A stretch of 64,000 nt of DNA from an uncultured Candidatus Saccharibacteria bacterium (GCA_965230955.1 OZ246404.1:920790-984789); one strand, 5' to 3'. Positions 6,656-64,000 are shown, counted from the first letter of the stretch. The notes: generated by a model not told the origin, from the letters alone. Made by a program: numbers and translations.

Positions 6656-6686
6656 TAACACGGAAGGCTTTTTTATTTGCGAACTA
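6656..6686 (+). terminator. rho-independent terminator
   Basis: The sequence reads GCCTTCCG-cttaaca-CGGAAGGC followed by TTTTTTATTT. Confidence 0.6.
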
Positions 6687-6801
6687 AAAGGCGGCCCCCC
6701 GCACTCAAGTGCAATCTTTTGTAGCTTGAGTGTGGGTAGCCGCCCCTATAGTCATGGCAGGCACCCGCCGAATCGGCGGGGCCTACCCCTACAACGTTTG
6801 A

Positions 6802-47299: not shown

Positions 47300-49519
47300 T
47301 TACTTAATCTCGTATCCCCCCGCCACTTCCCCGCTCAAACGATCAACATACACCGCTTTTTTGCCTTCCGGGAAAGTAAACCAAACGACATAGCAGGGCC
47401 GCTCAAATTCTGACAAGAAAGGTTTCATGGTATTCGGACTGGTATTCATCACCACTTGTTGTTCCGCTTCCACCGGTACGGCTCCCGGATCAACGCCCAA
47501 ATATGCGGCGGCGGTCTCGATGGCCGTCCCGACCTTGATAAATTGAGCCTGGTCTTGCTCGGTAATTTTGTAAATCAGGATCGAAGAATCAATTTCATAA
47601 TCAGGCTGGCGCGGCAAAATCCGGACATAGGAAACCTCCCCACTCTTGCGGGCGTAGAATTCGCTCATCTGATAAAAAGTCGCACTCACCGCCAAATAAG
47701 AACCGACCGGAGGTAAACCCATCTTGGAGTGCCAGCTGGTCACTCGATCTGCCGCCAAGGAATGGCGCGGAACGCCGCCGCCAAAATAATCGACGTAAAT
47801 ATGATCAATATTGTTGTACTCCACCCAGCGCGCCAAGCGATTGAGATCCTGTCCCCAATCAAGATTGGAATCGACTAAATAGCGATAAGCATTCTGTTTC
47901 GAACCGATAGTTTCATTGAAATAAGACAGATAATACGGATAGGCCAGGAAATTTCCGCCCACCAACCAAACCAACAGCATAATCACGAGAATGACGGCAA
48001 TCTTTAATTTGCCGTCTTTTTGGGTCTCCAGCGCTCGTCGCCGCAGATTGCGCAACCAGAAAATAATCGCCCCGCCCAATAGCACATAGATAAACGGGAA
48101 GATCGGCAGCATCCAGCGCAAACCGATATTAGCCTTGGAGCGAATACCGAGGAAGAGGAACATCGCGATCAGAGCCAGCATGACAAATACATCCCAGCGC
48201 AACCACACCAGTTTGCAAAATTTTTCCCACCCTCGACGAGCTCGAGTTGGGGGCGTTATGAAATCCAAAGAATTAACGGCACCGCTCGGCCCATTGATTT
48301 GATAACCGGGAGTGAGTTTCGGCCAATTGCGCCGGACTACCACCAACCCCAGGATCACGGCGATCACGCAGAAAATCATAATCGGGATCGGCGTCTTCAA
48401 GAAAAAAGCATCCAGGTAGTAATGCCACCAACCTTCATTCTGGTAATCACCCATCAAGAAAGCGCTGTTTCCCCCATCCACCCGCGCGAAAACCATCAAG
48501 ACACCCAGCGCATAGGTGGAAAAAGCTTTTCCGCCAGGAATTTGATCCAGCGCGTGCAAAGCGGAACGTCCCAGACTGGCCACCGCGGTATCTTGGGGCA
48601 GTGATTCATCGATCAACTGGGCATGCGTTTCCAGCGACATATTTTGGGTGTGGTGCAAATACGGAATGACGATCAGGAGATGCCCGATGATGAAAATAAG
48701 AATCAAGCCGATCACATAAATCCACAACCGTTTACCCCACTGACTTTTCAGCTTGAGCGATCCCAGCCAATCTTTGATTTGCTCACGCCGAACAAAAACA
48801 GCTACCAGCGCCAAAAGGATAAAGAAGGGAATAAGGGTCACGGCGCTGAATTTGGCCAGAGAAGCCAGCGCGAAAGAAACCGTCGCCGCCAACATCGTCC
48901 CCCAGCCTGGCTTTTTGATGAACTTGGTAAAATAATAAACCGAAATGAACATGAAAACCGTGACGCCGAAATCGGTGGTGACATAATGAGAATGGGCAAT
49001 GATATTCGGACAAAAAGCATAAAGCAAAGTCGCCAATAAACCGGCTTTTACTCCGAATAATTCTTTGGCCCATTTGTAGACAAAAATACCGAGGACGAAC
49101 AGCAACAGCATCGGCAAAAATCTGGTATAGCGAAACATCATTTCCGGATCGTTGCCTCGTTCGTAAATAAAAGTCCAGCCGGTTTGCCATTGGCCGTTTA
49201 TTTCATCGGTCCAAGCGGGAATGTCGTCGGGAAAATCAATATCTTTGACAAACAATAAAGGTAGAGCCGCCAAATCTTTTATCAAAGGCGGGTGTTCCGG
49301 ATTGAGACGATAATCGCCATACTTTAAATAAGAGTAACCGGCCGGAATATGCGCAATCTCATCAACAATGCCCGAATCGCTCGGCTGATCGCCGCCAAAA
49401 GGAATGGTCCCGGCCGAACTGAAGAAAGAAATTAAAAACATGACAAATAACAAAATAGCCACGATGGCGCGAGGGTGCTTGGGATTCCAAGTGTGCCAAG
49501 TTTTTGTTTTTGGTTCCAT
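47300..49519 (-). CDS. PMT/ArnT-family (GT-C fold) phospholipid-carrier-dependent glycosyltransferase with a C-terminal soluble domain
   Basis: It has about 11 N-terminal TM helices with the first-loop D-E motif region (IVDEIAH...), giving a GT39/GT83-like architecture. A C-terminal domain of about 200 aa follows. Confidence 0.65.
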   Translation of the reverse strand: MEPKTKTWHTWNPKHPRAIVAILLFVMFLISFFSSAGTIPFGGDQPSDSGIVDEIAHIPAGYSYLKYGDYRLNPEHPPLIKDLAALPLLFVKDIDFPDDIPAWTDEINGQWQTGWTFIYERGNDPEMMFRYTRFLPMLLLFVLGIFVYKWAKELFGVKAGLLATLLYAFCPNIIAHSHYVTTDFGVTVFMFISVYYFTKFIKKPGWGTMLAATVSFALASLAKFSAVTLIPFFILLALVAVFVRREQIKDWLGSLKLKSQWGKRLWIYVIGLILIFIIGHLLIVIPYLHHTQNMSLETHAQLIDESLPQDTAVASLGRSALHALDQIPGGKAFSTYALGVLMVFARVDGGNSAFLMGDYQNEGWWHYYLDAFFLKTPIPIMIFCVIAVILGLVVVRRNWPKLTPGYQINGPSGAVNSLDFITPPTRARRGWEKFCKLVWLRWDVFVMLALIAMFLFLGIRSKANIGLRWMLPIFPFIYVLLGGAIIFWLRNLRRRALETQKDGKLKIAVILVIMLLVWLVGGNFLAYPYYLSYFNETIGSKQNAYRYLVDSNLDWGQDLNRLARWVEYNNIDHIYVDYFGGGVPRHSLAADRVTSWHSKMGLPPVGSYLAVSATFYQMSEFYARKSGEVSYVRILPRQPDYEIDSSILIYKITEQDQAQFIKVGTAIETAAAYLGVDPGAVPVEAEQQVVMNTSPNTMKPFLSEFERPCYVVWFTFPEGKKAVYVDRLSGEVAGGYEIK

Positions 49520-49761
49520 ATTTTGCTTATTTATTTGACTCTACTATTATATCGTATTGGGCCGTATTTACCAAGCGCAAAATGCCAAAGGAAAATTGGC
49601 CTAAAAAATTAATAATTACTCGGTCCGCCGATTTAGCGATGACGCGCCACCTCGCCGGCGGGCGGAATTATATTTATTAAGTTAATAATTCCAACCATAT
49701 TTTTCTCTTGATTTTTTTCATATAAAATGTTAGACTATTGAGGAACCTAAAGATCGCCTAA

Positions 49762-51228
49762 ATGCTTGATTATATGCGCCGGCATTTAAAGAACGCCTTC
49801 ATCCCGCACTCGGGGAATAATCACATTCCTCATGTTTTGCGACGTAAACCGCTGGCTTTTTATAGCCTGCTTTTAATTTCCATCAAAGTACTGGCCATCG
49901 CGGCCGTATTGATGGCTCCCTCCCCCGCTCAGCTGGCTTCGGGAGTGGATGCCAATTTATTGGTTTCCCTGACGAATCAAGAAAGAAGTAGCCGAGGATT
50001 GGATAATCTGAGCACCAATCCGGCATTGATCGCGGCCGCCAAAGCAAAAGCTCAATACATGCTGGACAAAGATATTTTTGAACATGGCGATCCCTGGACA
50101 TTCATTCGCAACGCCGGATACGACTATCTCTATGCCGGCGAAAATATTGCCATGGATTTCCAAACCTCTGACGCCGTGCACAAAGCTTGGATGGCCTCAT
50201 CTTCGCACCGCGCCAATATTTTAAAAACTCAATACGAAGAGATCGGGATCGCGGCCGTGGCCGGCAAATTTCAGGATCATGACACCATCATGGTCGTCCA
50301 AATGTTCGGCTCCCCCAAAGTCAAAGGTTCTACGACAACCACTCCGGTCCCAACCCCTACCCCAAATCTGACCGCCACCCCGACGCCCCCGACACCAACG
50401 GCAACACCGGCAGTGACCACCACCGCGGTAATTACTCCGACCCCGACCGCTGCTCCGGACACAACAGCACCGACAATTCCGACGATAACTTTCCCCACCA
50501 ACACTTCGATACTGTCAGAAGCTTCCGTCATCAAAGGCACAGCCGAATCCGGCAGTGTCATAACGGTTTATGATAACAATATTCCTTTGCAAGAATTGAC
50601 CGCCCTCGACGGAACCTTCACAGTTCAATTGCGCGGCAATCTCAGCGACGGGAAACATACTCTCACGGCCGTCGCCAGAGATTCGGCCGGCAATACCAGC
50701 GCCACAGCAGTACCCGTGACGTTCACGGTCGATACTACCGATCCGGTAATCGACGCCGAGCAGACGACAGCCTTAATCGACCTGGCAAACAATCAAATCG
50801 ATGTCCGGGTCAAAGTAATCGAGCCCAATCTGGCCAGGGTCAGCGCCGGAATCGGCGATCAAATCACCGAACTGACTCCCCTCGACGGGAAATATGCCGG
50901 ATTACTGACCTCGGTCAACATTGATTCGAATGATCCGGCGGTCTTCGTAGAAGCGGTTGATCAGGCCGGACACAAACAGCGCCAGCTGATTACGAATTAT
51001 AATTTTGGCGGCGTCAGTACCGGCAATCAGACGGCCGGCGGACCGCTGGGTGCAACCTTTCTCGGCGGAGTGGCCGATTGGGGCGGATACCTGATTATCG
51101 CTTTTATCATTTTCCTTGTTGTTGCCTTGCTGATTAAAATCTTTGTCCGCGTCCGAATCCAGCATCCGCCGACGATTTTGCATACCTTGGTAGTTTTACT
51201 GCTGGCCGGCGTACTGCTGGTAATATAG
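49762..51228 (+). CDS. secreted CAP (SCP/PR-1, YkwD-like) domain protein with a Thr/Pro-rich linker, Ig-like domains and a C-terminal TM anchor
   Basis: The CAP region contains NQERSSRGL...HGDPWTFIRNAGYDYLYAGENIA...AWMASSSHRANIL. The linker TTTTPVPTPTPNLTATPTPPTPTATPAVTTTAVITPTPTAAPDTTAPTIPT follows, and the C-terminus has a hydrophobic anchor. Confidence 0.6.
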   Translation: MLDYMRRHLKNAFIPHSGNNHIPHVLRRKPLAFYSLLLISIKVLAIAAVLMAPSPAQLASGVDANLLVSLTNQERSSRGLDNLSTNPALIAAAKAKAQYMLDKDIFEHGDPWTFIRNAGYDYLYAGENIAMDFQTSDAVHKAWMASSSHRANILKTQYEEIGIAAVAGKFQDHDTIMVVQMFGSPKVKGSTTTTPVPTPTPNLTATPTPPTPTATPAVTTTAVITPTPTAAPDTTAPTIPTITFPTNTSILSEASVIKGTAESGSVITVYDNNIPLQELTALDGTFTVQLRGNLSDGKHTLTAVARDSAGNTSATAVPVTFTVDTTDPVIDAEQTTALIDLANNQIDVRVKVIEPNLARVSAGIGDQITELTPLDGKYAGLLTSVNIDSNDPAVFVEAVDQAGHKQRQLITNYNFGGVSTGNQTAGGPLGATFLGGVADWGGYLIIAFIIFLVVALLIKIFVRVRIQHPPTILHTLVVLLLAGVLLVI

Positions 51229-52366: not shown

Positions 52367-52666
52367 TCAATACAGTTTGCCCTGCTGAATCTCGGCCACC
52401 GTATCTTGCGCCTGATGGACATCGATTCGGAGAGACTGATCAGAACTCGGCAATAAAACAGCTTCTCTCATGGTGGCGCAAGTCTGATTCAAAAAAACAA
52501 ACACGAAATAGGCCCAGATCGCCAATATAATGAGAACAAAAATGGTGATCCAATTTATAGTATGATTACCTTCGACGCCCAGGCTCAAGCAAGAGATTTT
52601 CATCACGGACTGGCGAGCCTCAGCGGTGGGCGGTGCCACCGGTTTTTTATTGGAAGAGTCATTCAT
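52367..52666 (-). CDS. small single-TM protein, last gene of the pilus operon
   Basis: The start MNDSSNKKPV lies 4 nt after the pilO stop codon. It has one TM helix (ITIFVLIILAIWAYFVFVFL). Confidence 0.35.
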   Translation of the reverse strand: MNDSSNKKPVAPPTAEARQSVMKISCLSLGVEGNHTINWITIFVLIILAIWAYFVFVFLNQTCATMREAVLLPSSDQSLRIDVHQAQDTVAEIQQGKLY

Positions 52667-52670
52667 AAAT

Positions 52671-53231
52671 TTAATATTTCTCCGGCGCCACACCGATGAG
52701 GATTGTCACCGTAGCATTGACGCCTTCGCGAATCTCGCCGGTAATGGCGGTCATATATTTAATTTCATAATCTAGCTTCTGCTCGAAAACCGGATAGCGT
52801 AATTGCTCCAAATCCCCCAGAAAACCGATAAAATCTTTTTTATCACCGCGCACATTGATCACCGCAGGCACCGTCTGCGCCCTTTGCACCGCCACCATAG
52901 TATTTTGGACATCAATGGTATAGGCCAAATTGTACTTGCGGCCGATTTTTTCAATTTGGTCAATCACGCGGAAAGTCTGAACCTGAGGTAAAAGATAATC
53001 ATAAAGTGCCGCCCGTTCACGCTCGGTCTGCTGATAATTTGTTTCAACCTGCATTAACTCCTGGTTGACCTGCAGAGCCGCCTGATAATCACTCTCGGCC
53101 TTTTCATTTTGGGACAAAGCCCGCTCCACTTGCGGCTGAATCCACCCAAACATAACAAGCGCCGCCGACAATAAAACAACGGCAATAATCGCCAAACGGA
53201 TCAATAATAATTTTTTCAGGCTGGCATACAT
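52671..53231 (-). CDS. pilO: type IV pilus assembly protein PilO-like
   Basis: It has an N-terminal TM helix, a coiled-coil and a C-terminal domain, and it directly follows pilMN with a 1-nt overlap. Confidence 0.55.
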   Translation of the reverse strand: MYASLKKLLLIRLAIIAVVLLSAALVMFGWIQPQVERALSQNEKAESDYQAALQVNQELMQVETNYQQTERERAALYDYLLPQVQTFRVIDQIEKIGRKYNLAYTIDVQNTMVAVQRAQTVPAVINVRGDKKDFIGFLGDLEQLRYPVFEQKLDYEIKYMTAITGEIREGVNATVTILIGVAPEKY

Positions 53232-54808
53232 TATTTATTCTTCAGGCTAAAAGTAATTTCAAAATCTATCTTGGTATTCTCGTTGACCGAAAAATTAGAC
53301 AAGGGGTTATTCACATTATTAATTTGCGGCTCGTTTTTCAACTGCTCCTGAAAATTGACAATGTCTTCTCGGCTATTAGCCTGGCCGATCAAACGGCCTT
53401 CGCCTTTTTCGGAAATCGACAGTTTGACAATAACTACTTTGCCGGACGCCATTTTTTCTAAGTTCGCCAATAATTGGCTCCATTGATGTCGGTTTTGCCG
53501 GAGATCAATGTAAGCTCCCAGATAGGTATTGTATTTTTTTATTTCCCGCTCCATCGCCAATTGCCCCTCGGTCTTGGCTGATTGGACCTGAGATAAATCG
53601 GCGTTTATTTTTTTCGTCCGCCAATCCAGATAACCCCACATAACGCCGTAAGATGAAACGAAAATCAGCGCGCAGGCAATCACCCAGCCGGTCAGGACTC
53701 GGATACGCCGCTTTTGCGGATGAGTCACCTCTTCTTCCTGCTTATCTTGTGACACCAGATTCAACTCCCCCAGGACCGGATCAATCCCGAGTCCGCGAAT
53801 AGCCAGACCAATCGCTGTCCCGTAAGATAATTCCTGGCCGGCCAGCAACTGGCGCGAGGATTTATCCAATATTTCCGCCAACTGACCGACAGATACCGGA
53901 AGGGAGGTTTTTCGGCCGAGATATTCCGCTAAACCAGGCAATTGCGCCGCTCCGCCGACCAGTACGATTTTTTCAATATCTTTCGGCTGATCTTCGCGCC
54001 CGAGATAAAAATTTCTAGTCCGCTCGATCTCATTGGCCAGCTGATTCGCTTCGGAAGTCAATATCGTCGAGATTTCTTTTTTCGGCGAATCGGAATTCAA
54101 ACCATACCGGTGCTTCAACTCCCGCGCGTCCGGCGTGGTGACGCCCAAAGCCTGCGCCAGACTGTCCGTCCAGTCATCTCCCCCGCGCTTGAAACTGGAA
54201 GTAAATTGGATTAATCCCTGGCTATAGACGGAAAAAGTCGTATTACGGGCGCTGATATCAACCAGTAACACCCGCTGACCGGAAGATATTTGTCCCGGCA
54301 AGGCTCGCACCAATGCTTTCGATTCCATATCGAAAGCGAGCGCTTTCAGGCCAATTGTTTTGAAAATTTGGTAATAAGTATCCGCCCAGGCCCTGGTAAT
54401 CGCCGCGGCCAAAGCCGGACGCTGACCGGAAACCGTTTGCCCTGCTTCCCAATCCCAATCCATGCGCTCAATATCCTCGGAAACGTGCGAGGCCAGATCC
54501 CATTTGATCATTTCGGCTGTTTTTTCCGGCGGAGCCTGGGGTATTGTCGTCACGTGCAGATATACTTTTGATTCGGGCAAAGAAATTATGGCTAAGCGAG
54601 ATCGAATTGGCTCGGGCTTGGCCTGGCGGAGCAGAGACTGAATAATTTTCTGTAATTGAATCGGATCTCTGATTTCCCCATTGCCAATCACGCCGGACGG
54701 TAAAACAACCTGTCCGGCCGAGGATATGACCAAGCGGCCGCCGCGAATTTTACCGGCTACGGCTTTGATCGACTTCTCTCCGATGTCTAAACCAAAAGCG
54801 GGTAACAT
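53231..54808 (-). CDS. pilMN: fused PilM (actin-like ATPase) - PilN type IV pilus assembly protein
   Basis: The N-terminal 350 aa contain GLDIGEKSIKAV...LLVDISARNTT...IVLVGGAAQLPGL, which is PilM. A TM helix and a PilN-like periplasmic domain follow. Confidence 0.7.
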   Translation of the reverse strand: MLPAFGLDIGEKSIKAVAGKIRGGRLVISSAGQVVLPSGVIGNGEIRDPIQLQKIIQSLLRQAKPEPIRSRLAIISLPESKVYLHVTTIPQAPPEKTAEMIKWDLASHVSEDIERMDWDWEAGQTVSGQRPALAAAITRAWADTYYQIFKTIGLKALAFDMESKALVRALPGQISSGQRVLLVDISARNTTFSVYSQGLIQFTSSFKRGGDDWTDSLAQALGVTTPDARELKHRYGLNSDSPKKEISTILTSEANQLANEIERTRNFYLGREDQPKDIEKIVLVGGAAQLPGLAEYLGRKTSLPVSVGQLAEILDKSSRQLLAGQELSYGTAIGLAIRGLGIDPVLGELNLVSQDKQEEEVTHPQKRRIRVLTGWVIACALIFVSSYGVMWGYLDWRTKKINADLSQVQSAKTEGQLAMEREIKKYNTYLGAYIDLRQNRHQWSQLLANLEKMASGKVVIVKLSISEKGEGRLIGQANSREDIVNFQEQLKNEPQINNVNNPLSNFSVNENTKIDFEITFSLKNK

Positions 54809-54810
54809 AT

Positions 54811-55212
54811 TTATGGTTCGGTTTCAATAATATTGACTAATCCAGTATCGGTATAAAAAAGCGCTTGCAACTGCCTGGTCACCTGCCCCTTAACGCCGGT
54901 CACGACGACCTGCCGATCTTCGCCGGATTCCGTAATGACGATCGTAATCGTCACACCATTTAGGTAATCCATCGGACCGTCGGTATACGGTAAAGAAATT
55001 GCCGGCGGCCAAGCGGGATCTTTTTTAATACGAGTCAGCGTATCGTTTAGCGCGGCTTCACAGGCGGCAAAGACTTGATTACCTTTGGTCCCGTCATCCG
55101 TCATGCGAAATTCACGCAAACTCATGGCCGCAATGGCGATCGCCACAATCAAACCGACCACCGTCAATGCGGTAATGCCGATAATCGCCGCTTGTCCGCG
55201 CTGATTTTTCAT
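54811..55212 (-). CDS. pilus-associated hypothetical protein (hydrophobic N-terminus, no canonical prepilin motif)
   Basis: It is a 133-aa protein with an N-terminal hydrophobic helix, and it sits within the pilin gene block. Confidence 0.35.
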   Translation of the reverse strand: MKNQRGQAAIIGITALTVVGLIVAIAIAAMSLREFRMTDDGTKGNQVFAACEAALNDTLTRIKKDPAWPPAISLPYTDGPMDYLNGVTITIVITESGEDRQVVVTGVKGQVTRQLQALFYTDTGLVNIIETEP

Positions 55213-55722
55213 TTAATGCCTTCTTAAGGTGATAATGGAATCCAATTCGCTACTGGCCGGCGGATCAATATTGACGCTTTCAACCACGATGTTTACCGTG
55301 AAACTGACCGGCCCGGCTACCGGATCCATGACGGAAATATCAAAAGCAGACACGGCCACCATATCGCTGGTCAGCTGCTGGCTCTGGCCGTTACGATGGA
55401 CAAACATGGCTGTCTGTCCTCCCTGCCCCGCCGCCAGATAGAAACGAACATCGCCTTCAAATGTTTGAAAAGTTATTTCGTGCGCTTGATAAGGTGTTCC
55501 GACACTGTTGGCCCAGCGGCCGGTGAATTGCAGACGCTCCATAATCAGCCGGGCATTTTGCTGGGTATCGCGATTACCTTGGGCACTGCGGTTATTTTTC
55601 ATAATATCCAGCGCAAAGGAAGAGACGACCGTCATGGCCACGATCAAAATCGAGATGTAGACCAGTAATTCTACCAAGGTGAAGCCGCGCTGATTAAATT
55701 TAGCCTTTACCACTTTCATCAT
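55213..55722 (-). CDS. minor (pseudo)pilin with a prepilin-type N-terminal cleavage/methylation domain
   Basis: It contains NQRGFTLVELLVYISILIVAM, the class III signal peptide motif G-F-T-L-x-E. Confidence 0.65.
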   Translation of the reverse strand: MMKVVKAKFNQRGFTLVELLVYISILIVAMTVVSSFALDIMKNNRSAQGNRDTQQNARLIMERLQFTGRWANSVGTPYQAHEITFQTFEGDVRFYLAAGQGGQTAMFVHRNGQSQQLTSDMVAVSAFDISVMDPVAGPVSFTVNIVVESVNIDPPASSELDSIITLRRH

Positions 55723-55726
55723 TTTT

Positions 55727-58288
55727 TTAGGGGCTACAAGCGCCTTCGTAAGCAATAATAACTTTATTCAATACTGTCGGCTGGACATTGGTCGCACTGA
55801 CCAAGAAAGCTCTGACGGAAATAGTTGTTCCGCCGGCTGAAAAAGTTGCCAGATGATCATTAACCTCGGCTTGGGTACTATAGTTAGTTGCGCCGGCCAA
55901 CGCCCAATCCGATCCGTTCCAATACTGCCAACTGGCGCCGTCATCATTGCTTAATTGATAGTGAACGATTCCGGTGCCGGAGCTGTCGGCGGAAAAAGAA
56001 TACCAATTTGTCAGTCCCGTTATCGTTTTGGCTGTTTTGGGAGTTATGGCCGGACCATCGGTGGCATAACCCTGAATTGAATGGCCGGCATTATCAGTCT
56101 GGCGAAAATCATCAACCGCGTACCAACCCTCTACGGCTTGGGAAGAATTATCGACCGCCCGCAGATAAACCGGCTGGTTCTGATAATCCGCCATATTCAG
56201 TATCACTTCGCTCCAACTCCCGCTATTGGGCGCGTTAACGCGTTGCAATTCTTCGTTGTTGCTGGCTCGAAACAGCGCGACGTAATTATTGCCCTGACCG
56301 TTGGTGGCAAAATTACCGGCGGTGACTTTGACCAGTTCCGGTGTCAAACTGTTGACGTCGGTGACAAACACGATTCGATACTGGAAATAGCGATTATTGG
56401 AAACATTGGATAGAGCTAAAGAAGGAAAAGAAGCCACGGAATTGTATTGTTCGGAATAAAAAGTAGTGCCGGTTCCGTCCGGACCGATAAAAGACTCGCC
56501 CGCGCAAACAGCGTCATCACACGAACGCACTTGATAACGTAAATGCAGAATTCCGCGACGATAATGATCATTGGCTTCGGTCGCGGAAATGGCCCGATTG
56601 AAAACAGCGGCCTCGTCGATTCTGCCCGCCAAAGGATAATTTTTTACTGTCGGATTTACATTTTCTCCCAGTTGCGCCCCGACATTCAACTCGCTGTTCG
56701 TGTTTCGGGCGGTAATGGCTGAACCGTTGGAATTATCCAGCTGGCCGTCGAAATAAATTTTCATACCCGTTCCGTCCCAGGCACCGACCACGTGATACCA
56801 TTGCCCCGCGTTGACCGTCGTATTCGATTGCAAAGTATGGCTGACTCCTCCGCCATCAACCAACTTCAAAGCGACTCGCCCATTGTCCCAAAGCTGCAGC
56901 GAATAACTTTCATCGGATAAATCGGCTTTTGTGCCCTTATGGATAATTCCGCCGAAATTTTTGTAACTATCGAGGTGGATCCAAGCCTCCACCGTGCCGT
57001 CGCTGGTCAAATCCAAACTGCTATCTTGCGCCACGGCCACCCGGTTACTCACGCCGTTGAAATTAAGCGCGGTATTGAATTTTCCCGACAAGCCATAAGC
57101 CGCCCCGGAATTCAGCCCATTGTTGCTCCGTCCCGAACTATCCCAGAGCGTGCCGCTACCTTCATTAAAATGAAACAGAAGCATATTGCCGCTCATGTTG
57201 ACATTACCGCTGGGATAATCGGTTTCCGTTTGAGCGCTGTTTGGCAATTCCTTATCAGTCGGGCGCTGGGAAAGCCAAGCGATAGTTTTCCACGATTTAA
57301 CACTGCCCGCATCTTTAATCGCCGAAGTATAAGTGCCGGTACCATTGACCAAACCTTGAGCCGTCAGTTGCAACCAGTTACTGATATTATTATATTCGGT
57401 ATCGGCATACGTCCCGGTGTTAAATTGAGCTTGGTTATCATCAGTGAAATTTCCTACCGGGAAAGAAGTGGTCATTTGACTCCAGCCCCGATGGCGGAAA
57501 CGCAGTTGCTGTCCGGCCGAAGTAAAGACACTGCTTTGAATACTCCCCAAGAGCGTACTATCAGCCTCGGTACTGGCGACAAAATTTCCTCCGCCGCTAT
57601 TAACTACCTGCCAGGCATTACCCTGAACGGTCCAATTGGTAAAATCACTGGTTTGAAAATCGCCATTCGGAATAGCCGCCGCCGTGCGGTCGATCAACTG
57701 CGCTTGGCCGCCGGTCACTTCTATTTTATCCGCGTCGTAATCATAATCAGAGCCGTAAGTATAGGGCCAGTTGACATAGCAGACTTCCCAATTATCCAAA
57801 TACTCTTCCAGCGTCACCGATTGCGTACTCCCCCGTTCGGACCATTCCACCGCCACCGTCACCAAGCGAGATTCCGGGTCCACGACGGTTTCACTCCCGC
57901 AGACAGCCAGTTCATTGGTACTGACTTGACGGCAAACCGGAGACAGAGAAATGCGCCGGGTAAACACCCCGATCACTTCCCCGCCGGCAGACTCGACCAA
58001 GGACCAGTTGTCACCGCTGGGCTGGAGACGATAAATTCGGCCATCGGTGCTATAGCCGCTGAAGGTTGACCAGCTCTGCTCTTTTAGATTCGTCAGGGCT
58101 TCAATCGCCCCACTCCCGAGTGTGGTCGCTTGCCAGCGGTGCTCGCTCCAGGCGACATAGTGCATCGACTGGATCATAAGTCCGGTGATCCCGGAAACCA
58201 CAATCGTGGCGATAGCCAAAGCAATCAGCAATTCAATTACTGAAAATCCGCGCTGGCGTTTTATTTTTTTTGTCGGACTATATAACAT
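55727..58288 (-). CDS. giant pilin-like protein: prepilin N-terminus plus a LamG/concanavalin A-like lectin domain (853 aa)
   Basis: The N-terminus reads KRQRGFSVIELLIALAIATIV. The middle region contains GTVEAWIHLDSYKNFGGIIHKG...YSLQLWDNGRVALKL...GQWYHVVGAWDGTGMKIYFDGQL, which is the LamG/Laminin_G_3 pattern. Confidence 0.6.
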   Translation of the reverse strand: MLYSPTKKIKRQRGFSVIELLIALAIATIVVSGITGLMIQSMHYVAWSEHRWQATTLGSGAIEALTNLKEQSWSTFSGYSTDGRIYRLQPSGDNWSLVESAGGEVIGVFTRRISLSPVCRQVSTNELAVCGSETVVDPESRLVTVAVEWSERGSTQSVTLEEYLDNWEVCYVNWPYTYGSDYDYDADKIEVTGGQAQLIDRTAAAIPNGDFQTSDFTNWTVQGNAWQVVNSGGGNFVASTEADSTLLGSIQSSVFTSAGQQLRFRHRGWSQMTTSFPVGNFTDDNQAQFNTGTYADTEYNNISNWLQLTAQGLVNGTGTYTSAIKDAGSVKSWKTIAWLSQRPTDKELPNSAQTETDYPSGNVNMSGNMLLFHFNEGSGTLWDSSGRSNNGLNSGAAYGLSGKFNTALNFNGVSNRVAVAQDSSLDLTSDGTVEAWIHLDSYKNFGGIIHKGTKADLSDESYSLQLWDNGRVALKLVDGGGVSHTLQSNTTVNAGQWYHVVGAWDGTGMKIYFDGQLDNSNGSAITARNTNSELNVGAQLGENVNPTVKNYPLAGRIDEAAVFNRAISATEANDHYRRGILHLRYQVRSCDDAVCAGESFIGPDGTGTTFYSEQYNSVASFPSLALSNVSNNRYFQYRIVFVTDVNSLTPELVKVTAGNFATNGQGNNYVALFRASNNEELQRVNAPNSGSWSEVILNMADYQNQPVYLRAVDNSSQAVEGWYAVDDFRQTDNAGHSIQGYATDGPAITPKTAKTITGLTNWYSFSADSSGTGIVHYQLSNDDGASWQYWNGSDWALAGATNYSTQAEVNDHLATFSAGGTTISVRAFLVSATNVQPTVLNKVIIAYEGACSP

Positions 58289-58722
58289 TATTCCGGTTTA
58301 ATGATTTCGATTTTTAATTCATACCGATTATTGTCGGCCCCGTCATCATCTTTCATTATATCGCGATTTAAGTCGCTCAGTGAGGCTGACACCACGGCGG
58401 TCAGATCATTGAGTCGATCGTATTTAACGTGCGCCGGGACGGCGGGCAAATAATCGGACACTAATTCCGACAGCTGAGTCGGCAATTTACCTTTATCAAA
58501 ACCATAGGCTTCGAGAGCGATCCGAGAATCTTCCACCTCGCGCCGCAATTCAATATCCGTCTGCGTCTGCTGATCGATTTTTTCTTGTTTGACCAAATCG
58601 AAGTCACCTTCTTTTGTGGTATCCCCGGAGAACCATCCGCCGTATTGCCAGCCGTAAAACACCACGCCCACCGCGGCCGCAATAACAAGTACAATGATAA
58701 TTACCAAACCAATCTTATTCAT
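58288..58722 (-). CDS. small membrane-anchored protein with a GspG/pseudopilin-like C-terminal region but no G-F-T-L-x-E motif
   Basis: It starts MNKIGLVIIIVLVIAAAVGVVFY. It contains KGKLPTQLSELVSDYLPAVP, which resembles the GspG-type Y..yP..L..L...yl...P segment. Confidence 0.4.
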   Translation of the reverse strand: MNKIGLVIIIVLVIAAAVGVVFYGWQYGGWFSGDTTKEGDFDLVKQEKIDQQTQTDIELRREVEDSRIALEAYGFDKGKLPTQLSELVSDYLPAVPAHVKYDRLNDLTAVVSASLSDLNRDIMKDDDGADNNRYELKIEIIKPE

Positions 58723-58745
58723 ATATTTTCAGATAACATGGAGTC

Positions 58746-58829
58746 AGGTAACAAGTAACAGGTACCAAGGAACAAATAGGAATAATTTTTTCCTTTTTGT
58801 TACTTGTTACTTGTTACCTGTTACTTGTT
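58746..58829. repeat. intra-operon imperfect hairpin (~30-bp arms) built from GTAACAA/GTAACAG units
   Basis: The left arm is AGGTAACAAGTAACAGGTACCAAGGAACAAA and the right arm is TTTGTTACTTGTTACTTGTTACCTGTTACTTGTT. The left arm matches the repeat at 16126-16155 (reverse complement) with one mismatch in 30 nt. Confidence 0.5.
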
Positions 58830-61762
58830 TAAGAACCAAAATAGTACGCCCCCATATCATTCCTTGTACTATCGGGATTATTGTAGAAAGGATCGGGATC
58901 ACCGGCGTGAATACAGGGTGAACCAGCTTGCAGATGAAAATCACTGCCCGGCGCGACAAACAGCGGGTTCTGCGAAATGGAATTTAATCCCTGATAAGTC
59001 GCTCCTTGTCCGGTGTAGTTGGTCGTGTTGCTCCAAACATCGGCGTAATTGTTGTTCAAATTAGCATTGCCGTTGGTCACATTGAAACCAGCCGAATTGT
59101 TGGTGATGATGTTGTTCCGCAATTTTGTTGCCCCGTCAAAACGATCCAGCTGAATACCGATCCCGGCCAACGTGCCGTAAATCGTATTGTTGTAATAATG
59201 AGTACCGGTGTTTCCCCGCTGAGTATAAATCCCGTTGCGCACGTTATTGAACAGATTGTAATAGACTTTGAAATTCTGCGGACGTAGAGCATAGACTCCC
59301 GTGCAAGCCGCTACAGTGCAATTGCTGACCGTATTCCGGTAGAATTGCGTACCGTTGGGCCGATCGAAATAATTGTAATTGGTGTTGTCATGGATCCGGT
59401 TGTCGTGAATCAGCGAATTGGTATCTGTGGTCGTATAAATTGCCCGCTGGTTATTATAAATATCATTTTGGTATACTTCCACACTCACGCTATTGTTCAG
59501 ATAGAGGCCATAGCTGCCGGTATTATTACGAATTATATTGTCATATATTTTTGTCCCGGTATTACCAGCGTCATAAACCGCTTGGGTAGTATTATTTCTG
59601 ATAGTGTTATTCCGAATTATATTACTGTTGTTGGCGCCGGCTTGCAGGTAGATTCCCGTGCCGACCGCATAAATTTCCAAATTTTCATAAATATCATTAC
59701 TGGTATTGTTCTGTGAACGAATACCATTCGTAGCGCTGGTTAATTTCAAACCGGTGATACGGAGATAATTGGTTTGTGTCATCTGAAAACAATTGGTCGT
59801 ACCGTCGATGATGACATTGGTATCGCCCGTCTTGTTCATGAATTCGGTATAGTTTCCCGCCGTCCCAGATTTGGCCGCGCTCAAAGTAACTTGCTCGGCA
59901 TAAGTACCATTGGCGATACAAACATTATCCCCGCCCGACATCGCGGTCACGGCCTCGGCAATCGTTTTAAAAGCAGTCGCCCAACTCAAGCCATTGCCCG
60001 AAACCGGGCGCGACTGATCCACATGCCAATTACAAGACTGAGTCGTGTAACTAAAAGACCAAGTTTGATTGCTCCACCGCCCATAAGAGTGATTATCCAC
60101 CGCTTCCACTTTCCAGTAGTAAGTGCCGGCTGAGGCCAGCGTCCCGGTATAAGTGCTGACACCTAGTCCGCTGACATTCATTTCCGGCGAGCCAAAGGCC
60201 GGATCATTGTCGACCATAATATGATAGGTCACGGTATCGCCGGGATCGGGATCAAGGGTGTCTTCCCAGTCGAAAGCCATCGGCATAGAAGAAATCGAAG
60301 CGCCGCTGGCGGGAGTCAGCAGATTGAAAGCATTCGGCTGGCGATTGGTATAAAAATTCCAATTTTGTTCAATCGCCCAGGTGGAACCGCCGCGAGTGTC
60401 ATCGGCTCGCACCCGCCAGTAGTAAAACTGTCCCGCGGTCAGGGCGGAAGGAATGGTATAAGTGCTAGGGATAAGACCGCCGACTTCTGTCTTGGTGGTA
60501 AATGTCGGATCGGTTGAATACCATAAAGTATAAGTCACGCTGTCGCCCGGATCAGGGTCGGTACTGTCATCCCAGTCCAGCGTCGGAGTCGTCGTGTTGA
60601 TATACTCTCCCGACACCGGAGCAAGCAAATGAAACGCACCGGGAGCGACATTGGCATCAACTGTCAGCGAACGATACGTTCGGCCGCTCGGCTGATCTGT
60701 GCCGTAAGTGATTCCGCCTAGTCCGTCCTCGGCCCGCACGCGCCAATAGTTAGTCGTATAATTAGTCAGGGCTTCTCCCGGCTTCAGCGTATATTCCGAT
60801 AAGCTGATGCCGGTAATGGTAGTCGGCGAAGAAAAAGAGGAATTATCATCATGCTGGAATGTATAGGAAACGGGATTACCGTCGGGATCCGTGGTATCTT
60901 CCCAATCAAATGACGGTGTCAGAGTAATGGTTTCATGATAAGCGTCAGCCGGCGACAAAAGATAAAACGGTTCGGGCGGATCATTGAGAAGCGCGTTGAC
61001 ATACCAATTTTTTTCTTCGCTCCAGCGCTCGCCCGCCGAACCTATGGCTTTCACCTTCCAATAATTTCGACGGCCATTAACCAGTTGTTGCCCGGAGTTC
61101 AGAGTATAAGAAGTCGAATTAATGCCGGTGATTTCGGTATAAGTGCCAAAATTAGGATCGGTCGAATGCCATAAAGTATATGACACGGCATTAGGCGCCG
61201 CGCTCCAGAAAAAAGTCGGAGTCAAGGTATAAGAAGTGCTTTGGTTCGCCGGCGAAGACAAAGAGAAAGCGCCGGGCAGGCCGCTGTCATTTAAGTCATA
61301 TTCACCAATCCGCCCCTCACTGCTGACACTGATTTCTTTTTGCTGGCCGGTACCATCGAGTTCTAAGGTGACGTGCCCGTAATTGGGCGTGAGCCCAGTC
61401 AGTTTATCGAACACCACCTGATCCACGGGCGGCGGAGCAAAACTGATGGCGCTGAAACTAAGAACAGTGGGAACATCAAAGGTTTCCAGCACTGTCCCGC
61501 CGGCGTAGTCATTTCCTTTAAATAAATAGAATTTGTCGGCGCCGGAATTGATCTCGAAGAAAACACCGTATTTTTCTCCGTCTTTGGCCGCGATGGACTG
61601 GCTCTGAGCCAGACGCAGGGTCGAAATGATCTGCTGAGCCGTCACATCCAGCTGGGACGATCGCTGATAAAAGCTATAACTCACGGTCACCACGGCCGAC
61701 AAAATACCGATCACCGCCACGGTGACCAGAAGTTCAATTAAAGTGAATCCGCGTCGAGACAT
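58829..61762 (-). CDS. giant pilin-like protein: prepilin N-terminus plus four FN3-like repeats plus a C-terminal right-handed parallel beta-helix (pectate-lyase/NosD-like) domain (977 aa)
   Basis: The N-terminus reads MSRRGFTLIELLVTVAVIGILSAV. Four repeats of about 100 aa carry the motif LxxPxxxxxxxxTPTFxWxDxxDPDxxxVxYTxxxxxDxxF. The C-terminus has NNTIRNNT-type beta-helix rungs and ends in PLFVAPGSDFHLQAGSPCIHAGD. Confidence 0.65.
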   Translation of the reverse strand: MSRRGFTLIELLVTVAVIGILSAVVTVSYSFYQRSSQLDVTAQQIISTLRLAQSQSIAAKDGEKYGVFFEINSGADKFYLFKGNDYAGGTVLETFDVPTVLSFSAISFAPPPVDQVVFDKLTGLTPNYGHVTLELDGTGQQKEISVSSEGRIGEYDLNDSGLPGAFSLSSPANQSTSYTLTPTFFWSAAPNAVSYTLWHSTDPNFGTYTEITGINSTSYTLNSGQQLVNGRRNYWKVKAIGSAGERWSEEKNWYVNALLNDPPEPFYLLSPADAYHETITLTPSFDWEDTTDPDGNPVSYTFQHDDNSSFSSPTTITGISLSEYTLKPGEALTNYTTNYWRVRAEDGLGGITYGTDQPSGRTYRSLTVDANVAPGAFHLLAPVSGEYINTTTPTLDWDDSTDPDPGDSVTYTLWYSTDPTFTTKTEVGGLIPSTYTIPSALTAGQFYYWRVRADDTRGGSTWAIEQNWNFYTNRQPNAFNLLTPASGASISSMPMAFDWEDTLDPDPGDTVTYHIMVDNDPAFGSPEMNVSGLGVSTYTGTLASAGTYYWKVEAVDNHSYGRWSNQTWSFSYTTQSCNWHVDQSRPVSGNGLSWATAFKTIAEAVTAMSGGDNVCIANGTYAEQVTLSAAKSGTAGNYTEFMNKTGDTNVIIDGTTNCFQMTQTNYLRITGLKLTSATNGIRSQNNTSNDIYENLEIYAVGTGIYLQAGANNSNIIRNNTIRNNTTQAVYDAGNTGTKIYDNIIRNNTGSYGLYLNNSVSVEVYQNDIYNNQRAIYTTTDTNSLIHDNRIHDNTNYNYFDRPNGTQFYRNTVSNCTVAACTGVYALRPQNFKVYYNLFNNVRNGIYTQRGNTGTHYYNNTIYGTLAGIGIQLDRFDGATKLRNNIITNNSAGFNVTNGNANLNNNYADVWSNTTNYTGQGATYQGLNSISQNPLFVAPGSDFHLQAGSPCIHAGDPDPFYNNPDSTRNDMGAYYFGS

Positions 61763-61766
61763 TTTT

Positions 61767-62987
61767 TTATTGAACCGTACTGATGACGGAATAAATCGGA
61801 GTAATAATGGATAGCGCCAAGATACCGATGCCGGCGCCGACCACCAGCATCAAGATCGGCTCGATCAACGAGGAAAGAGATTTGAGCTCGGTCACAACTT
61901 GATTGCTATATAATTCCGCCAGCCGGTCGAGAATAACGGTCACTTCACCGGTTCGCTCCCCCACTCGCACCATCCCGATGACCGTGGGCGGAAAAAGGTT
62001 TTTCTCCGCTTCCATCGATTCGGTCAGCGCCACACCCTTGGTCACCCGCTCGGCCACGCGCTTCAGCGCGTTGCCGTACAAACGATCCTTCATCGTATCG
62101 CCCGTCACGGTGATCGCTTCCACGATCGGCATGCCGCTTTTTACCAAATTGGCCAGCGTGCCGGAAAAAGCCGCCATGGCGATTTTTTCTTTGACTTGGT
62201 GAATCAGCGGCCAGCGACTCCAAAAAACGCTGCTCGATGTTTTCACCGACGGAAAACGATTGAGCCACCAAATAAAGACAATCAACCCGACCAGTACAAG
62301 CAGAATCAGCCACCAAAAATTGACGATGAAATCGCTGGTCGCCAGCAATAATCTGGTTGTACCCGGCAATTCCGCGCCGTTTTGCTGTAAAACATCGGCA
62401 ATTTTCGGCACGACAAAAATCATCAGTGCAAAACCGACGCCGATCATGGCGCAAACAATGACAATGGGATAAAGCAGTGCGCCGCGGACCTGGCTGGTCA
62501 ACTCGTAACGACGCCTCAACTCCGAAGCCAAATAGCGCAGATTCTTTTCCAAAATTCCGCTGACCTCGCCGGCACGTACCACTTGGATAAAAACTCGGTC
62601 GAAAACTTCCGGGTGTTTGGAAAAAGACGCCGAGAGCGGAATGCCCGAAGCCACATCCTTGCCGGCATCACGCAATATCTGGCGCAATTTGGCGCTGCGA
62701 AATTGATCGCTGACTATCTGCAAAGCTTCCACCAGCGGCAGACCGGCTTTTAGCATGGCCGCCAATTGCTCCACCAAAAGAGTTTTGTTCAGCAAAGAAA
62801 CCTGGCCGATTTCCATCGACCATAAGCTGCTGCGCCGACCTTCTTTTTCTTCCATCCGCGCGATGAAAAAACCCTGGGACTGCAATTGCTGAACCGCCGT
62901 CGTTTTATCGGCCGCGATTATTTTTCCTTTTTGGGTCTCCCCGTGTTTGGAGAGCACCTCGTATTCAAATTCCGGCATATAATCCAA
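61767..62987 (-). CDS. pilC: type IV pilus assembly protein PilC (GspF family platform protein)
   Basis: It has the duplicated GspF domain architecture with three TM helices, and it contains LLYPIVIVCAMIGVGF and GMPIVEAITV. Confidence 0.85.
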   Translation of the reverse strand: MDYMPEFEYEVLSKHGETQKGKIIAADKTTAVQQLQSQGFFIARMEEKEGRRSSLWSMEIGQVSLLNKTLLVEQLAAMLKAGLPLVEALQIVSDQFRSAKLRQILRDAGKDVASGIPLSASFSKHPEVFDRVFIQVVRAGEVSGILEKNLRYLASELRRRYELTSQVRGALLYPIVIVCAMIGVGFALMIFVVPKIADVLQQNGAELPGTTRLLLATSDFIVNFWWLILLVLVGLIVFIWWLNRFPSVKTSSSVFWSRWPLIHQVKEKIAMAAFSGTLANLVKSGMPIVEAITVTGDTMKDRLYGNALKRVAERVTKGVALTESMEAEKNLFPPTVIGMVRVGERTGEVTVILDRLAELYSNQVVTELKSLSSLIEPILMLVVGAGIGILALSIITPIYSVISTVQ

Positions 62988-62989
62988 GA

Positions 62990-63060
62990 TTTAAGATGTA
63001 AGATATAAGATGTAAGAAAATAAGAAAAAATTCTTCTTAAATCTTATATCTTAATTCTTA
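62990..63060. repeat. inverted repeat of TAAGAT units in the pilB-pilC intergenic spacer
   Basis: AAGATTTAAGATGTAAGATATAAGATGTAAGAA faces TTCTTCTTAAATCTTATATCTTAATTCTTATATCTT. Confidence 0.5.
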
Positions 63061-63106
63061 TATCTTCTCCCTGGGCTCACGGGTAAAACATAGTGTCAGC
63101 TCCTGC

Positions 63107-64000
63107 CTAGCGAATGACTCTGAGGATTTCGTCGATCGACGTCTGCCCTTCAAAAGCTTTTTGGATGCCGTCTTCCAACATCGTCTGCATGCCGGCGGCT
63201 ACCGCCGCCTCGGCAATAACGCTCGAATCCTTGCGTTCGGCGATAAGCTCCCGAATTTTGTCGTTAATTTCCAAAACTTCATAGATACCGACCCGCCCGC
63301 GATAACCGGATCCGCCGCAACGATCACAACCCTTGCTCCGGAAAAATCGTAAATTACTCCAGTCTTTTTTGGCGATAACTTGGAGTTTCACCATGTGATT
63401 CAAAGCGGCTTCCAAATCGATACCCGCCTGCCGGCTGGACAGAGATTTTAGATCGACTTTGTAACTTTCCATGCAGAGCGGACAGAGCCGCCGGACCAAG
63501 CGTTGGCCGACCGCTACATTGACGGTGGAAGATATCAAAAAAGGCTGAATCCCCATATCAATCAAACGCGGCAGAGTACCGGCGGCATCATTGGTATGGA
63601 GCGTGGACAGCACCAAGTGGCCGGTCAGGGCGGAATGGATGGCGATTTCCGCGGTTTCGGTATCGCGAATTTCGCCGATCATGATGATATCCGGATCCTG
63701 GCGTAGAATCGAACGCAGACCATTCGCGAAAGAAATTCCCACACCGGGATTAACCTGAATTTGATTGACCCGCTCAATGCTATACTCTATCGGATCTTCC
63801 ACCGTGCTGATGTTTACGTCTTCGGTATTGAGCATATTGAGCACCGTATAGAGCGTAGTCGTCTTGCCGGAACCGGTCGGCCCCGTCACCAGCAACATGC
63901 CATGCGGGCGCTCAATCGCGCGCTTGATAATATCTAAATTTTTTCCTTTTAGCCCCAAATCTTCCAGGGAATAGCGTTTGGATTCTTCCGGCAGAAGGCG
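63107..64000 (-). CDS. pilB: type IV pilus assembly ATPase PilB (GspE family), C-terminal part; the N-terminus lies beyond the window end
   Basis: It has a Walker A motif (LVTGPTGSGKTTTLY), an Asp box, a His box and the tetracysteine motif (CPLC...CDRCGGSGY). The reading frame stays open to position 64000. Confidence 0.85.
   Translation of the reverse strand, partial: RLLPEESKRYSLEDLGLKGKNLDIIKRAIERPHGMLLVTGPTGSGKTTTLYTVLNMLNTEDVNISTVEDPIEYSIERVNQIQVNPGVGISFANGLRSILRQDPDIIMIGEIRDTETAEIAIHSALTGHLVLSTLHTNDAAGTLPRLIDMGIQPFLISSTVNVAVGQRLVRRLCPLCMESYKVDLKSLSSRQAGIDLEAALNHMVKLQVIAKKDWSNLRFFRSKGCDRCGGSGYRGRVGIYEVLEINDKIRELIAERKDSSVIAEAAVAAGMQTMLEDGIQKAFEGQTSIDEILRVIR

Follow-up and report, generated by a model that had tools for sequence, protein, structure and literature searches.

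A secretin-less type IV pilus-type gene cluster with a natural PilM-PilN fusion and two large modular minor pilins in an uncultured Candidatus Saccharibacteria bacterium

The lifestyle of bacteria of the Candidate Phyla Radiation (CPR, or Patescibacteria) is believed to depend on attachment to other cells, for which type IV pili (T4P) are the best-supported organelles (PMC11623550). Here we describe a T4P-type gene cluster in a 64,000-nucleotide stretch of DNA (hereafter called the window) from an uncultured Candidatus Saccharibacteria bacterium (GCA_965230955.1 OZ246404.1:920790-984789). The cluster comprises ten co-directional, intact and tightly packed open reading frames (ORFs) at positions 52367-64000 on the minus strand, which is the strand of every cluster feature described below. 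It resembles the T4P-1 and T4P-2 of Nanosynbacter lyticus TM7x, a member of the Saccharibacteria (PMC11623550), in its CPR host, in the presence of PilB, PilC, PilM, PilN and PilO without a secretin, in the distribution of pilins and machinery over several loci (the shaft pilin, PilD and PilT are absent locally in the window), and in large minor pilins that bear C-terminal modules, lectin-like or otherwise, and in part have non-canonical signal peptides; these pilins have been proposed as tip adhesins. Nevertheless, PilM, PilN and PilO are separate proteins in TM7x, whose locus 1 includes PilT and PilD, whereas the modules in the window are a beta-helix and a LamG domain, and the PilC of the window is ~30-32% identical to those of Saccharibacteria. 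The T4aP of Streptococcus sanguinis is also secretin-less and of the monoderm type, and bears a lectin-type module on a minor pilin of the tip complex; its modular minor pilins are PilB (vWA) and PilC (ConA-like lectin) (PMC8179133, PMC9934059). In contrast to the window, the S. sanguinis locus encodes major pilins, PilD and PilT as well as separate PilM, PilN and PilO, and the modular pilins of the window are much larger (853 and 977 amino acids (aa)) and include a right-handed beta-helix.

Each element of the cluster is of a known kind, i.e., CPR T4P, modular pilins, and PilM plus PilN as the equivalent of GspL. What is new is the combination, in which a natural and conserved PilM-PilN fusion is found in an operon for an assembly platform and a tip with two giant modular minor pilins. 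This is not a new kind of system, and the current understanding is not overturned; rather, the annotation is refined and testable ligands are indicated. We regard it as likely that the products of the cluster are the assembly platform in the membrane and the complex that primes the tip of a CPR type 4 filament (T4F), belonging to the branch of T4aP and type II secretion systems (T2SSs) that uses PilM, PilN and PilO. A first-pass annotation, made from the sequence alone, proved largely right; it overstated the completeness of the operon and mislabelled two small proteins, as described below.

The fusion is encoded at 53231-54808 as a single 525-aa ORF carrying both PilM_2 and PilN. Its PilM actin-like domain (residues 1-340) is followed by an ELNLV motif (residues 348-352; nucleotides 53753-53767), a transmembrane (TM) helix (~371-394), a coiled coil reaching residue 438, and the PilN alpha/beta domain (440-522). 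The Pfam model PilM_2 matched residues 6-339 (2.4e-34, 119 bits), and a sequence match to PilM was obtained in the PDB (4e-28). PilN was matched over residues 445-521 (E 0.0025), with a score of 20.1 bits against a cut-off of 22.8. When the last 181 aa of the fusion were searched against 1.84 billion representatives, 292 matches were obtained, mostly to stand-alone proteins of 175-200 aa that aligned over their full length. Scanning 61 sequences (the fragment from the window and 60 stand-alone matches) detected Pfam PilN in 57. LNLLPP, the consensus N-terminus of the stand-alone PilN proteins, aligns with the ELNLV of the fusion. In solved complexes, the N-terminal peptide of PilN is the part bound by PilM. 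An AlphaFold2 model built from a 78-sequence alignment was confident over both halves (pLDDT 91.3); in it, the actin-like domain (1-340) leads through a linker into one long helix (354-438), which is followed by the alpha/beta domain (440-522). Its best PDB matches in Foldseek (TM-score 0.81-0.83 on target) were 5EOU, an engineered PilM:PilN(1-12) chimera of Pseudomonas aeruginosa, and 2YCH, a complex of Thermus thermophilus PilM with a PilN peptide. Both are laboratory constructs or complexes with 12-15 residues of PilN, whereas a whole PilN has been fused naturally in the window. Judging from the sequence matches and the predicted structure, the C-terminal half is a complete PilN, and a whole PilM is joined to a whole PilN.

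Such an ORF could in principle have been produced by a frameshift or another assembly error, or the entire arrangement could be that of a decaying, non-functional locus, as the PilN and PilO parts in the window score under the Pfam cut-offs and neither PilD nor PilT nor a major pilin is encoded at the locus. Nevertheless, two independent Logan assemblies from different runs were identical to the window, with 0 mismatches over 15.6-15.7 kb including the fusion ORF. Uninterrupted 525-aa orthologues were found in four other assemblies (67-74% identity), a fifth fused relative of 523 aa (~43% identity) is encoded in GCA_042570845.1, and the PilN half is well conserved among the five. Because the two assemblies are identical and relatives down to ~43% identity keep the ORF, the fusion is real and is no assembly artefact, and the frameshift reading, which the first-pass annotation had named as the way in which its proposal of a pilM-pilN fusion could fail, is ruled out. 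With the model confident over both halves and all ten genes intact and tightly packed, an artefactual or decaying locus is very improbable.

The first-pass annotation called the fusion unusual, which holds in comparison with model systems, but the fusion is not unique. In ~47 other PilC-anchored loci, mostly from CPR, pilM and pilN form two separate neighbouring ORFs, frequently with a 4-nt overlap, and the two are fused only in the clade of the window. On the other hand, ~20 of the top 150 representatives matched by the PilN half are proteins of 457-544 aa that match at their C-terminus; among 20 scanned (19 of these long representatives and the window's protein), PilM_2 was found in 15 and PilN in 11. 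Long proteins annotated as 'PilM' and labelled Elusimicrobia, Acidimicrobiales, Myxococcota and others also carry PilM_2, with a PilN match in 4 of the 10 scanned. Because similar fusions occur among both sets, the PilM-PilN fusion is recurrent and polyphyletic. Natural fusions annotated as 'PilM' (e.g., P0089, P0110 and P0120; from metagenome-assembled genomes (MAGs) labelled Elusimicrobia and Acidimicrobiales) share with the window's protein a length of 460-590 aa and an INLLP-like junction, but are just 18-22% identical to it, and the fusions of other phyla appear to be independent events. We also noticed that the window's fusion matches the NCBIfam family 'Amuc_1101 family PilM-like pilus complex protein' (7.6e-29, over positions 72-475 of a 608-position profile). 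This family, which consists of long PilM-like proteins from the pili-associated cluster of Akkermansia, may represent another extended or fused PilM.

The fusion has the architecture of GspL/PulL, in which an actin-like domain in the cytoplasm, a single TM helix and a ferredoxin-like domain outside the membrane belong to one polypeptide, whose gene is followed by that of a PilO/GspM-like partner. Membership in the GspL family was nevertheless rejected: the gspL model TIGR01709 gave 16.1 bits (E 0.0046) against a cut-off of 65, while PilM_2 matched at 2.4e-34. Unlike GspL, moreover, the fusion keeps the N-terminal motif of PilN, and the nearest CPR operons are unfused. The fusion converges on the GspL architecture and arose independently from adjacent pilM and pilN.

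Immediately downstream of the fusion gene, a 186-aa bitopic protein (52671-53231) is PilO/GspM-like. PilO was its sole Pfam match (E 0.021, 15.4 bits); the orthologue in L002, an 84%-related locus, reached the cut-off (22.1 bits), and the orthologue in L086 carries a weak PilO match. In a profile comparison with hhalign, the family aligned with the gene following pilN in other CPR operons (probability 97%, E 1e-10). All three components of the PilM-N-O membrane sub-complex are present by these family and profile matches.

Upstream of the fusion gene lie four pilin genes, which we compared with a recurring type of CPR operon. In five related loci (L004, L012, L014, L030 and L034; about 8-16 kb in each, with the order in L030 readable in part only), the genes for PilB and PilC are followed by those for three canonical pilins of 140-210 aa, a Glu5-less protein of 400-450 aa, PilM, PilN, a PilO-like protein and a TM protein of 80-107 aa. 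These five loci were found to encode neither PilT nor PilD nor a pilin of the major type, in contrast to L005 and L006, where full T4aP loci include genes for PilT, for a multi-TM protein resembling PilD and for major-type pilins. After removal of the N-terminal hydrophobic helix, each pilin of the window gave its best profile match with the protein in the same position of the operon type: the module of the 977-aa pilin with slot 1 (H; E 3e-4 over 106 columns), that of the 853-aa pilin with slot 2 (I; E 7.7e-3, a weak match over 21 columns), the 168-aa pilin with slot 3 (J; E 7.6e-4), and the 133-aa protein with slot 4 (K; E 6e-4), all off-diagonal values being at least 0.018. By these profile comparisons, the four pilin genes are shown to be slot-by-slot counterparts of a conserved H-I-J-K-type minor-pilin block. 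Relative to the operon type, slots 1 and 2 in the window are enlarged by C-terminal modules, slot 4 is shortened, a gene for a 144-aa protein is inserted, and pilM and pilN are fused. As a separate observation, L012, L003 and L015, the records of which are titled 'uncultured Gammaproteobacteria', contain pilus operons in the CPR style that are almost collinear with the operons of Komeilibacteria MAGs; the MAGs so titled may be taxonomically mislabelled.

Modular type IV pilins have been defined by an N-terminal pilin module (IPR012902/N_methyl) combined with a non-pilus functional domain (Raynaud et al. 2021, PMC8179133); they are widespread, and lectin-bearing and CPR examples are known (PMC8179133). 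Two proteins of the window have this composition, the 977-aa pilin with Beta_helix, NosD and Pel9A-like domains and the 853-aa pilin with Laminin_G_3. The former (58829-61762; slot 1, GspH-like; leader MSRRG/FTLIE, where the slash marks the end of the leader) consists of a pilin module (~1-160), four ~100-aa Ig/FN3-like repeats (~163-573) and a right-handed beta-helix (~574-977), with matches to N_methyl (4e-7), Beta_helix (1.3e-15), NosD (7.7e-12), Ig_Rha78A_N (2.1e-11) and Pel9A-like_beta_helix. The best NCBIfam match of its N-terminus was GspH (4.8e-11), and in a sequence search of the PDB it was matched through its N-terminal helix only. A PHROGs scan aimed at a possible phage tailspike-like origin of the beta-helix matched the pilin N-terminus alone. 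The 853-aa pilin (55727-58288; slot 2, PilV/GspI-like; leader ...KRQRG/FSVIE) matched N_methyl (8.9e-7), Laminin_G_3 (4.6e-25), TafC (3.2e-13) and PilV (5.5e-4), and contains a LamG/ConA-like lectin module (~405-577) with beta-rich flanks; no PDB sequence match was found for it. Its residues 202-576, which include the lectin module, match PHROG 8510, a phage 'virion structural protein' (1.5e-13), hinting that the LamG-type module is also common to phage particles.

The third pilin (168 aa; 55213-55719; slot 3, GspJ/PilW/ComGF-like; leader ...NQRG/FTLVE) is a canonical minor pilin, with a match to N_methyl (2.1e-7) and N-terminal matches to HpsC, ComGF and GspH. N-terminal matches to ComGD, ComGE and ComGF, together with a gene order (E, F and then four minor pilins) that matches comGA-GG, raise the alternative that the cluster encodes a competence (Com-type) pseudopilus for DNA uptake instead of an adhesion organelle. 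CPR bacteria depend on scavenged nucleotides, which would fit such a function. However, Com systems are devoid of PilM-N-O (PMC6668835, PMC10191384), which is present in the cluster, and the ComG models scored far under their cut-offs. No ComGC-like major pilin and no ComEA or ComEC were found in the window, and the ligands suggested by the giant lectin and beta-helix modules are glycans, not DNA. We therefore rejected a Com-type pseudopilus, which we consider quite unlikely.

The fourth and last gene of the minor-pilin block encodes the 133-aa protein (54811-55212; PilX/GspK slot; leader MKNQRG/QAAII), which the first-pass annotation, as with the 144-aa protein encoded at 58288-58722, described as lacking the prepilin peptidase motif and as perhaps an unprocessed, membrane-retained component. 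Its sole family match was PilX_N, below the cut-off (E 0.0066, 16.9 against 25.5 bits), and an hhalign comparison with the slot-K family gave E 1e-4 at a probability of 57%; the L014 member of that family passes PilX_N (27.9 against 25.5 bits). By these matches, the protein would be a shorter form of the slot-4 proteins (400-450 aa) found in the other CPR operons. Its orthologues are 83-95% conserved, with an invariant MxxQRG/QAAIIG N-terminus including Gly(-1), and the QRG leader end is common to the 133-aa protein and two canonical pilins of the operon. Only Phe+1 and Glu+5 are absent, with Ile at +5. In the HIJK complex, absence of Glu5 is a class feature of the tip-cap subunit (PMC10191384). 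Because the invariant QRG leader end is kept and a Glu5-less cap is expected, the proposal of an unprocessed, membrane-retained protein is not the best reading, and these sequence features favour a Glu5-less cap subunit of the PilX/GspK slot instead.

For the 144-aa protein, the label 'GspG-like' was rejected for lack of support. No Pfam, NCBIfam or PDB match was found, and only 3 relatives were recovered among 5.8 billion proteins. By eye, the protein resembles pilins in their alpha1C region. This region was also aligned in the hhalign comparison with 35 CPR major-type pilins, but the resemblance was not significant (P 0.013-0.029, 3% probability); none of the H, I, J and K slots was matched (E at least 0.34), and Gly5 is Ser in 2 of 5 orthologues. 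An AlphaFold2 model from a 4-sequence alignment was unusable (pLDDT 49). The protein is lineage-specific, with no counterpart in related CPR operons, and from its sequence it is probably an uncleaved bitopic membrane protein. PDB profile searches with the 144-, 133- and 186-aa families gave nothing meaningful.

Which components of the machine are encoded outside the cluster can be judged over 69 kb, as a Logan assembly of run SRR10083296 (L082) agrees with the window at every one of 15,713 bases and continues for another 4,722 bases beyond position 64000. No Peptidase_A24 (PilD), secretin, PilP or PilT was found among the window's other large ORFs scanned, nor any pilQ, pilP, pilD or pilT in the 4.7 kb past the window end. 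Neither a GspD secretin nor GspC was detected in the window or L082, and the sole T2SSE-family gene in both is that for PilB. A six-frame motif scan of the window identified only three class III signal peptides, those of the 977-, 853- and 168-aa pilins, and none was found in the 4.7 kb beyond, so that no candidate for the major (shaft) pilin emerged. The first-pass annotation was thus right that pilQ, pilP and pilD are missing from the window and that the cluster is secretin-less, but the operon cannot be called complete, with no PilD, PilT or major pilin in the window or the adjoining 4.7 kb.

In the mechanism that we favour, PilB (the ATPase), PilC (the platform), the PilM-PilN fusion and PilO form the machine in the cytoplasmic membrane, in which PilM is tied covalently to a complete PilN including its 'INLLP'-type N-terminal peptide, a contact that is non-covalent in other systems. 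By analogy with established minor-pilin biology, the four minor pilins would be the first to assemble and would prime assembly, and would finally occupy the tip of the filament, with the Glu5-less 133-aa subunit as its cap. The slot-1 pilin, with its four Ig-like repeats and pectate-lyase-like beta-helix, and the slot-2 pilin, with its LamG lectin, would then display glycan-binding and possibly glycan-cleaving modules at the tip, by which the bacterium may attach to host cells or surfaces. The genes for the shaft pilin, for the prepilin peptidase and for a retraction ATPase, if there is one, would have to lie elsewhere in the 1.14-Mb genome, their products acting in trans, and the response regulator and sensor kinase encoded upstream probably control the system. 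This scheme draws on T4F biology (PMC10191384, PMC8179133, PMC9934059, PMC11623550); a prepilin peptidase that is encoded elsewhere and shared is known (PMC6668835), and lectin-like minor pilins occur in CPR T4P, whose pilin and machinery genes are divided among several loci (PMC11623550).

Several points weigh against this mechanism. With no major pilin, PilD or PilT in the 64 kb and the adjoining 4.7 kb, filament formation is assumed. The ligand or activity of the beta-helix and LamG modules is not assignable from sequence. The H/I/J/K labels rest on weak N-terminal hidden Markov model matches and on position, the slot-I match being weak in particular. Two internal gaps carry hairpins, so that one uninterrupted transcript is not established. 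Finally, the T2SS models fit PilB and PilC slightly better than the T4P models do, i.e., 388 bits for GspE against 366 for PilB, and 309 bits for GspF against 264 for PilC.

The last point suits a different reading, according to which the cluster encodes a T2SS-like or 'tip-only' pseudopilus. Here the four minor pilins would make up a short stalk or piston, by which the two giant modules or other cargo are displayed or pushed through the wall and S-layer. For such a device a major pilin and retraction would be unneeded, and the window locus and the five related CPR loci are all without a major pilin, PilT and PilD. The gene order also matches gspE-F-(G)-H-I-J-K-L-M-N, with the fusion in the architecture of GspL (PMC10191384), and one study proposes a T2SS-like role for a second T4P gene set of the monoderm Clostridium perfringens (PMC11580942). 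Nevertheless, the preference for GspE and GspF is not diagnostic, as all scores of PilB and PilC are under every equivalog cut-off; the cytoplasmic domain of the fusion is of the PilM type, with GspL at a mere 16 bits; and pilM and pilN are separate in the sister CPR operons, which makes the fusion recent and not a sign of T2SS ancestry. No GspD or GspC was found in the window or L082, no GspG was recognised in the cluster and the GspL family was unmatched, so true T2SS membership was rejected; moreover, pilins encoded apart from the machinery are usual in CPR (PMC11623550). We consider the pseudopilus reading rather unlikely. Its wider form, in which the operon type constitutes a distinct CPR class of short, tip-only, T2SS-like filaments and the fusion a re-invention of GspL, is slightly more doubtful still; if true, the device would push giant glycan-binding or glycan-cutting modules through wall and S-layer, gripping or opening the host surface.

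The LamG-lectin and pectate-lyase-like beta-helix minor pilins are candidates for host recognition. The fusion, well conserved and confidently modelled, could serve the study of the PilM-PilN contact and of GspL-like architectures. The recurrence in CPR of a platform-plus-tip operon without a shaft pilin, a peptidase and a retraction motor also raises the question of how very small genomes share parts between pili.

The identities of the cluster genes were assigned from Pfam and NCBIfam profile scans, which confirmed the partial pilB, pilC, the giant FN3/beta-helix pilin, the LamG pilin, the canonical minor pilin and pilMN of the first-pass annotation, and ten minus-strand ORFs were found at or near the positions, and in the order, that it had given. 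The first of them, for a PilB/GspE-type extension ATPase (63107-64000), is cut by the window end, leaving the C-terminal 297 aa. Read in L082, the full PilB has 574 aa with MshEN and T2SSE (1.3e-99) and spans the window-equivalent positions 63107-64831. The PilC/GspF platform protein (61767-62978) has 403 aa and two T2SSF repeats (4.9e-58), starting from an ATG at 62978; the mechanically called ORF begins at a TTG at 62987. The starts of pilC, of the 168-aa pilin gene and of the last gene were taken from independent gene calls on identical contigs. That last gene (52367-52666) encodes a 99-aa single-TM protein with no family match in profile scans. It is conserved in L001, L002 and L086, and a TM protein of 80-107 aa occupies the same position with the same topology in L004, L012, L014, L030 and L034, although the sequence match to these positional counterparts was not significant (E 0.018).

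The genes are less tightly interlocked than the overlaps of 1-4 nt originally described. Only two junctions overlap, by 1 nt each (144-aa/853-aa and PilMN/PilO), and the remaining ones are gaps of 0-7 nt, except for two of 106 and 128 nt. The 106-nt spacer after the 977-aa pilin gene (58723-58828) carries a long hairpin of GTAACAA/G heptamers (dG -35.4 kcal/mol, z -6.3), and the 128-nt spacer between pilB and pilC (62979-63106) a long AT-rich hairpin in the stretch 62988-63106 (dG -32.5 kcal/mol, z -5.1); neither has a U-tract. In L002, hairpins occur at both equivalent positions (6677-6754 and 2470-2547), with sequences unrelated to those of the window. The two elements may act in processing, stability or attenuation and thereby set subunit ratios. 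As promoter and terminator scans gave counts at or below shuffle expectation, operon boundaries were not drawn from them.

The first-pass annotation counted eleven or more co-directional genes; ten lie in the window, and the series does continue past its end. There, L082 encodes the missing N-terminus of PilB and, instead of the pilQ and pilP that the first-pass annotation had named as evidence against itself, a 176-aa response regulator with a C-terminal zinc ribbon, followed further upstream by a 784-aa dCache/HAMP/PAS histidine kinase, a 62-aa ORF and a CHASE4 protein. These two-component and CHASE4 genes (L082 1-3801, equivalent to window positions ~64922-68722) are co-directional with the cluster and directly upstream of pilB. 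A response regulator adjoins the pilus genes also in L002, L001 and L014, being directly upstream of pilB in the last of these, which suggests that a regulatory link is conserved.

The rest of the window encodes housekeeping functions, including rpoB/rpoC, recA, groEL, uvrA/uvrC, ftsK and pyruvate kinase. The named relatives of its RecA (67-77% identity) all belong to Patescibacteria/CPR, including the Parcubacteria group, Andersenbacteria, Moranbacteria and Portnoybacteria, and these relatives support the CPR assignment of the host and with it the first-pass suggestion of a CPR-type bacterium. From what is known of CPR, the host would have a monoderm envelope. Just downstream of the cluster, the region 47300-51228 encodes a glycosyltransferase of the PMT family (dolichyl-phosphate-mannose-type, 739 aa) and a secreted protein of 488 aa with a CAP domain and bacterial Ig domains, both close to the pilus genes and with possible surface or glycosylation functions. 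At the other end of the window (1442-2860), a 472-aa protein with FG-GAP repeats (5.9e-29) is a further candidate surface or adhesion protein.

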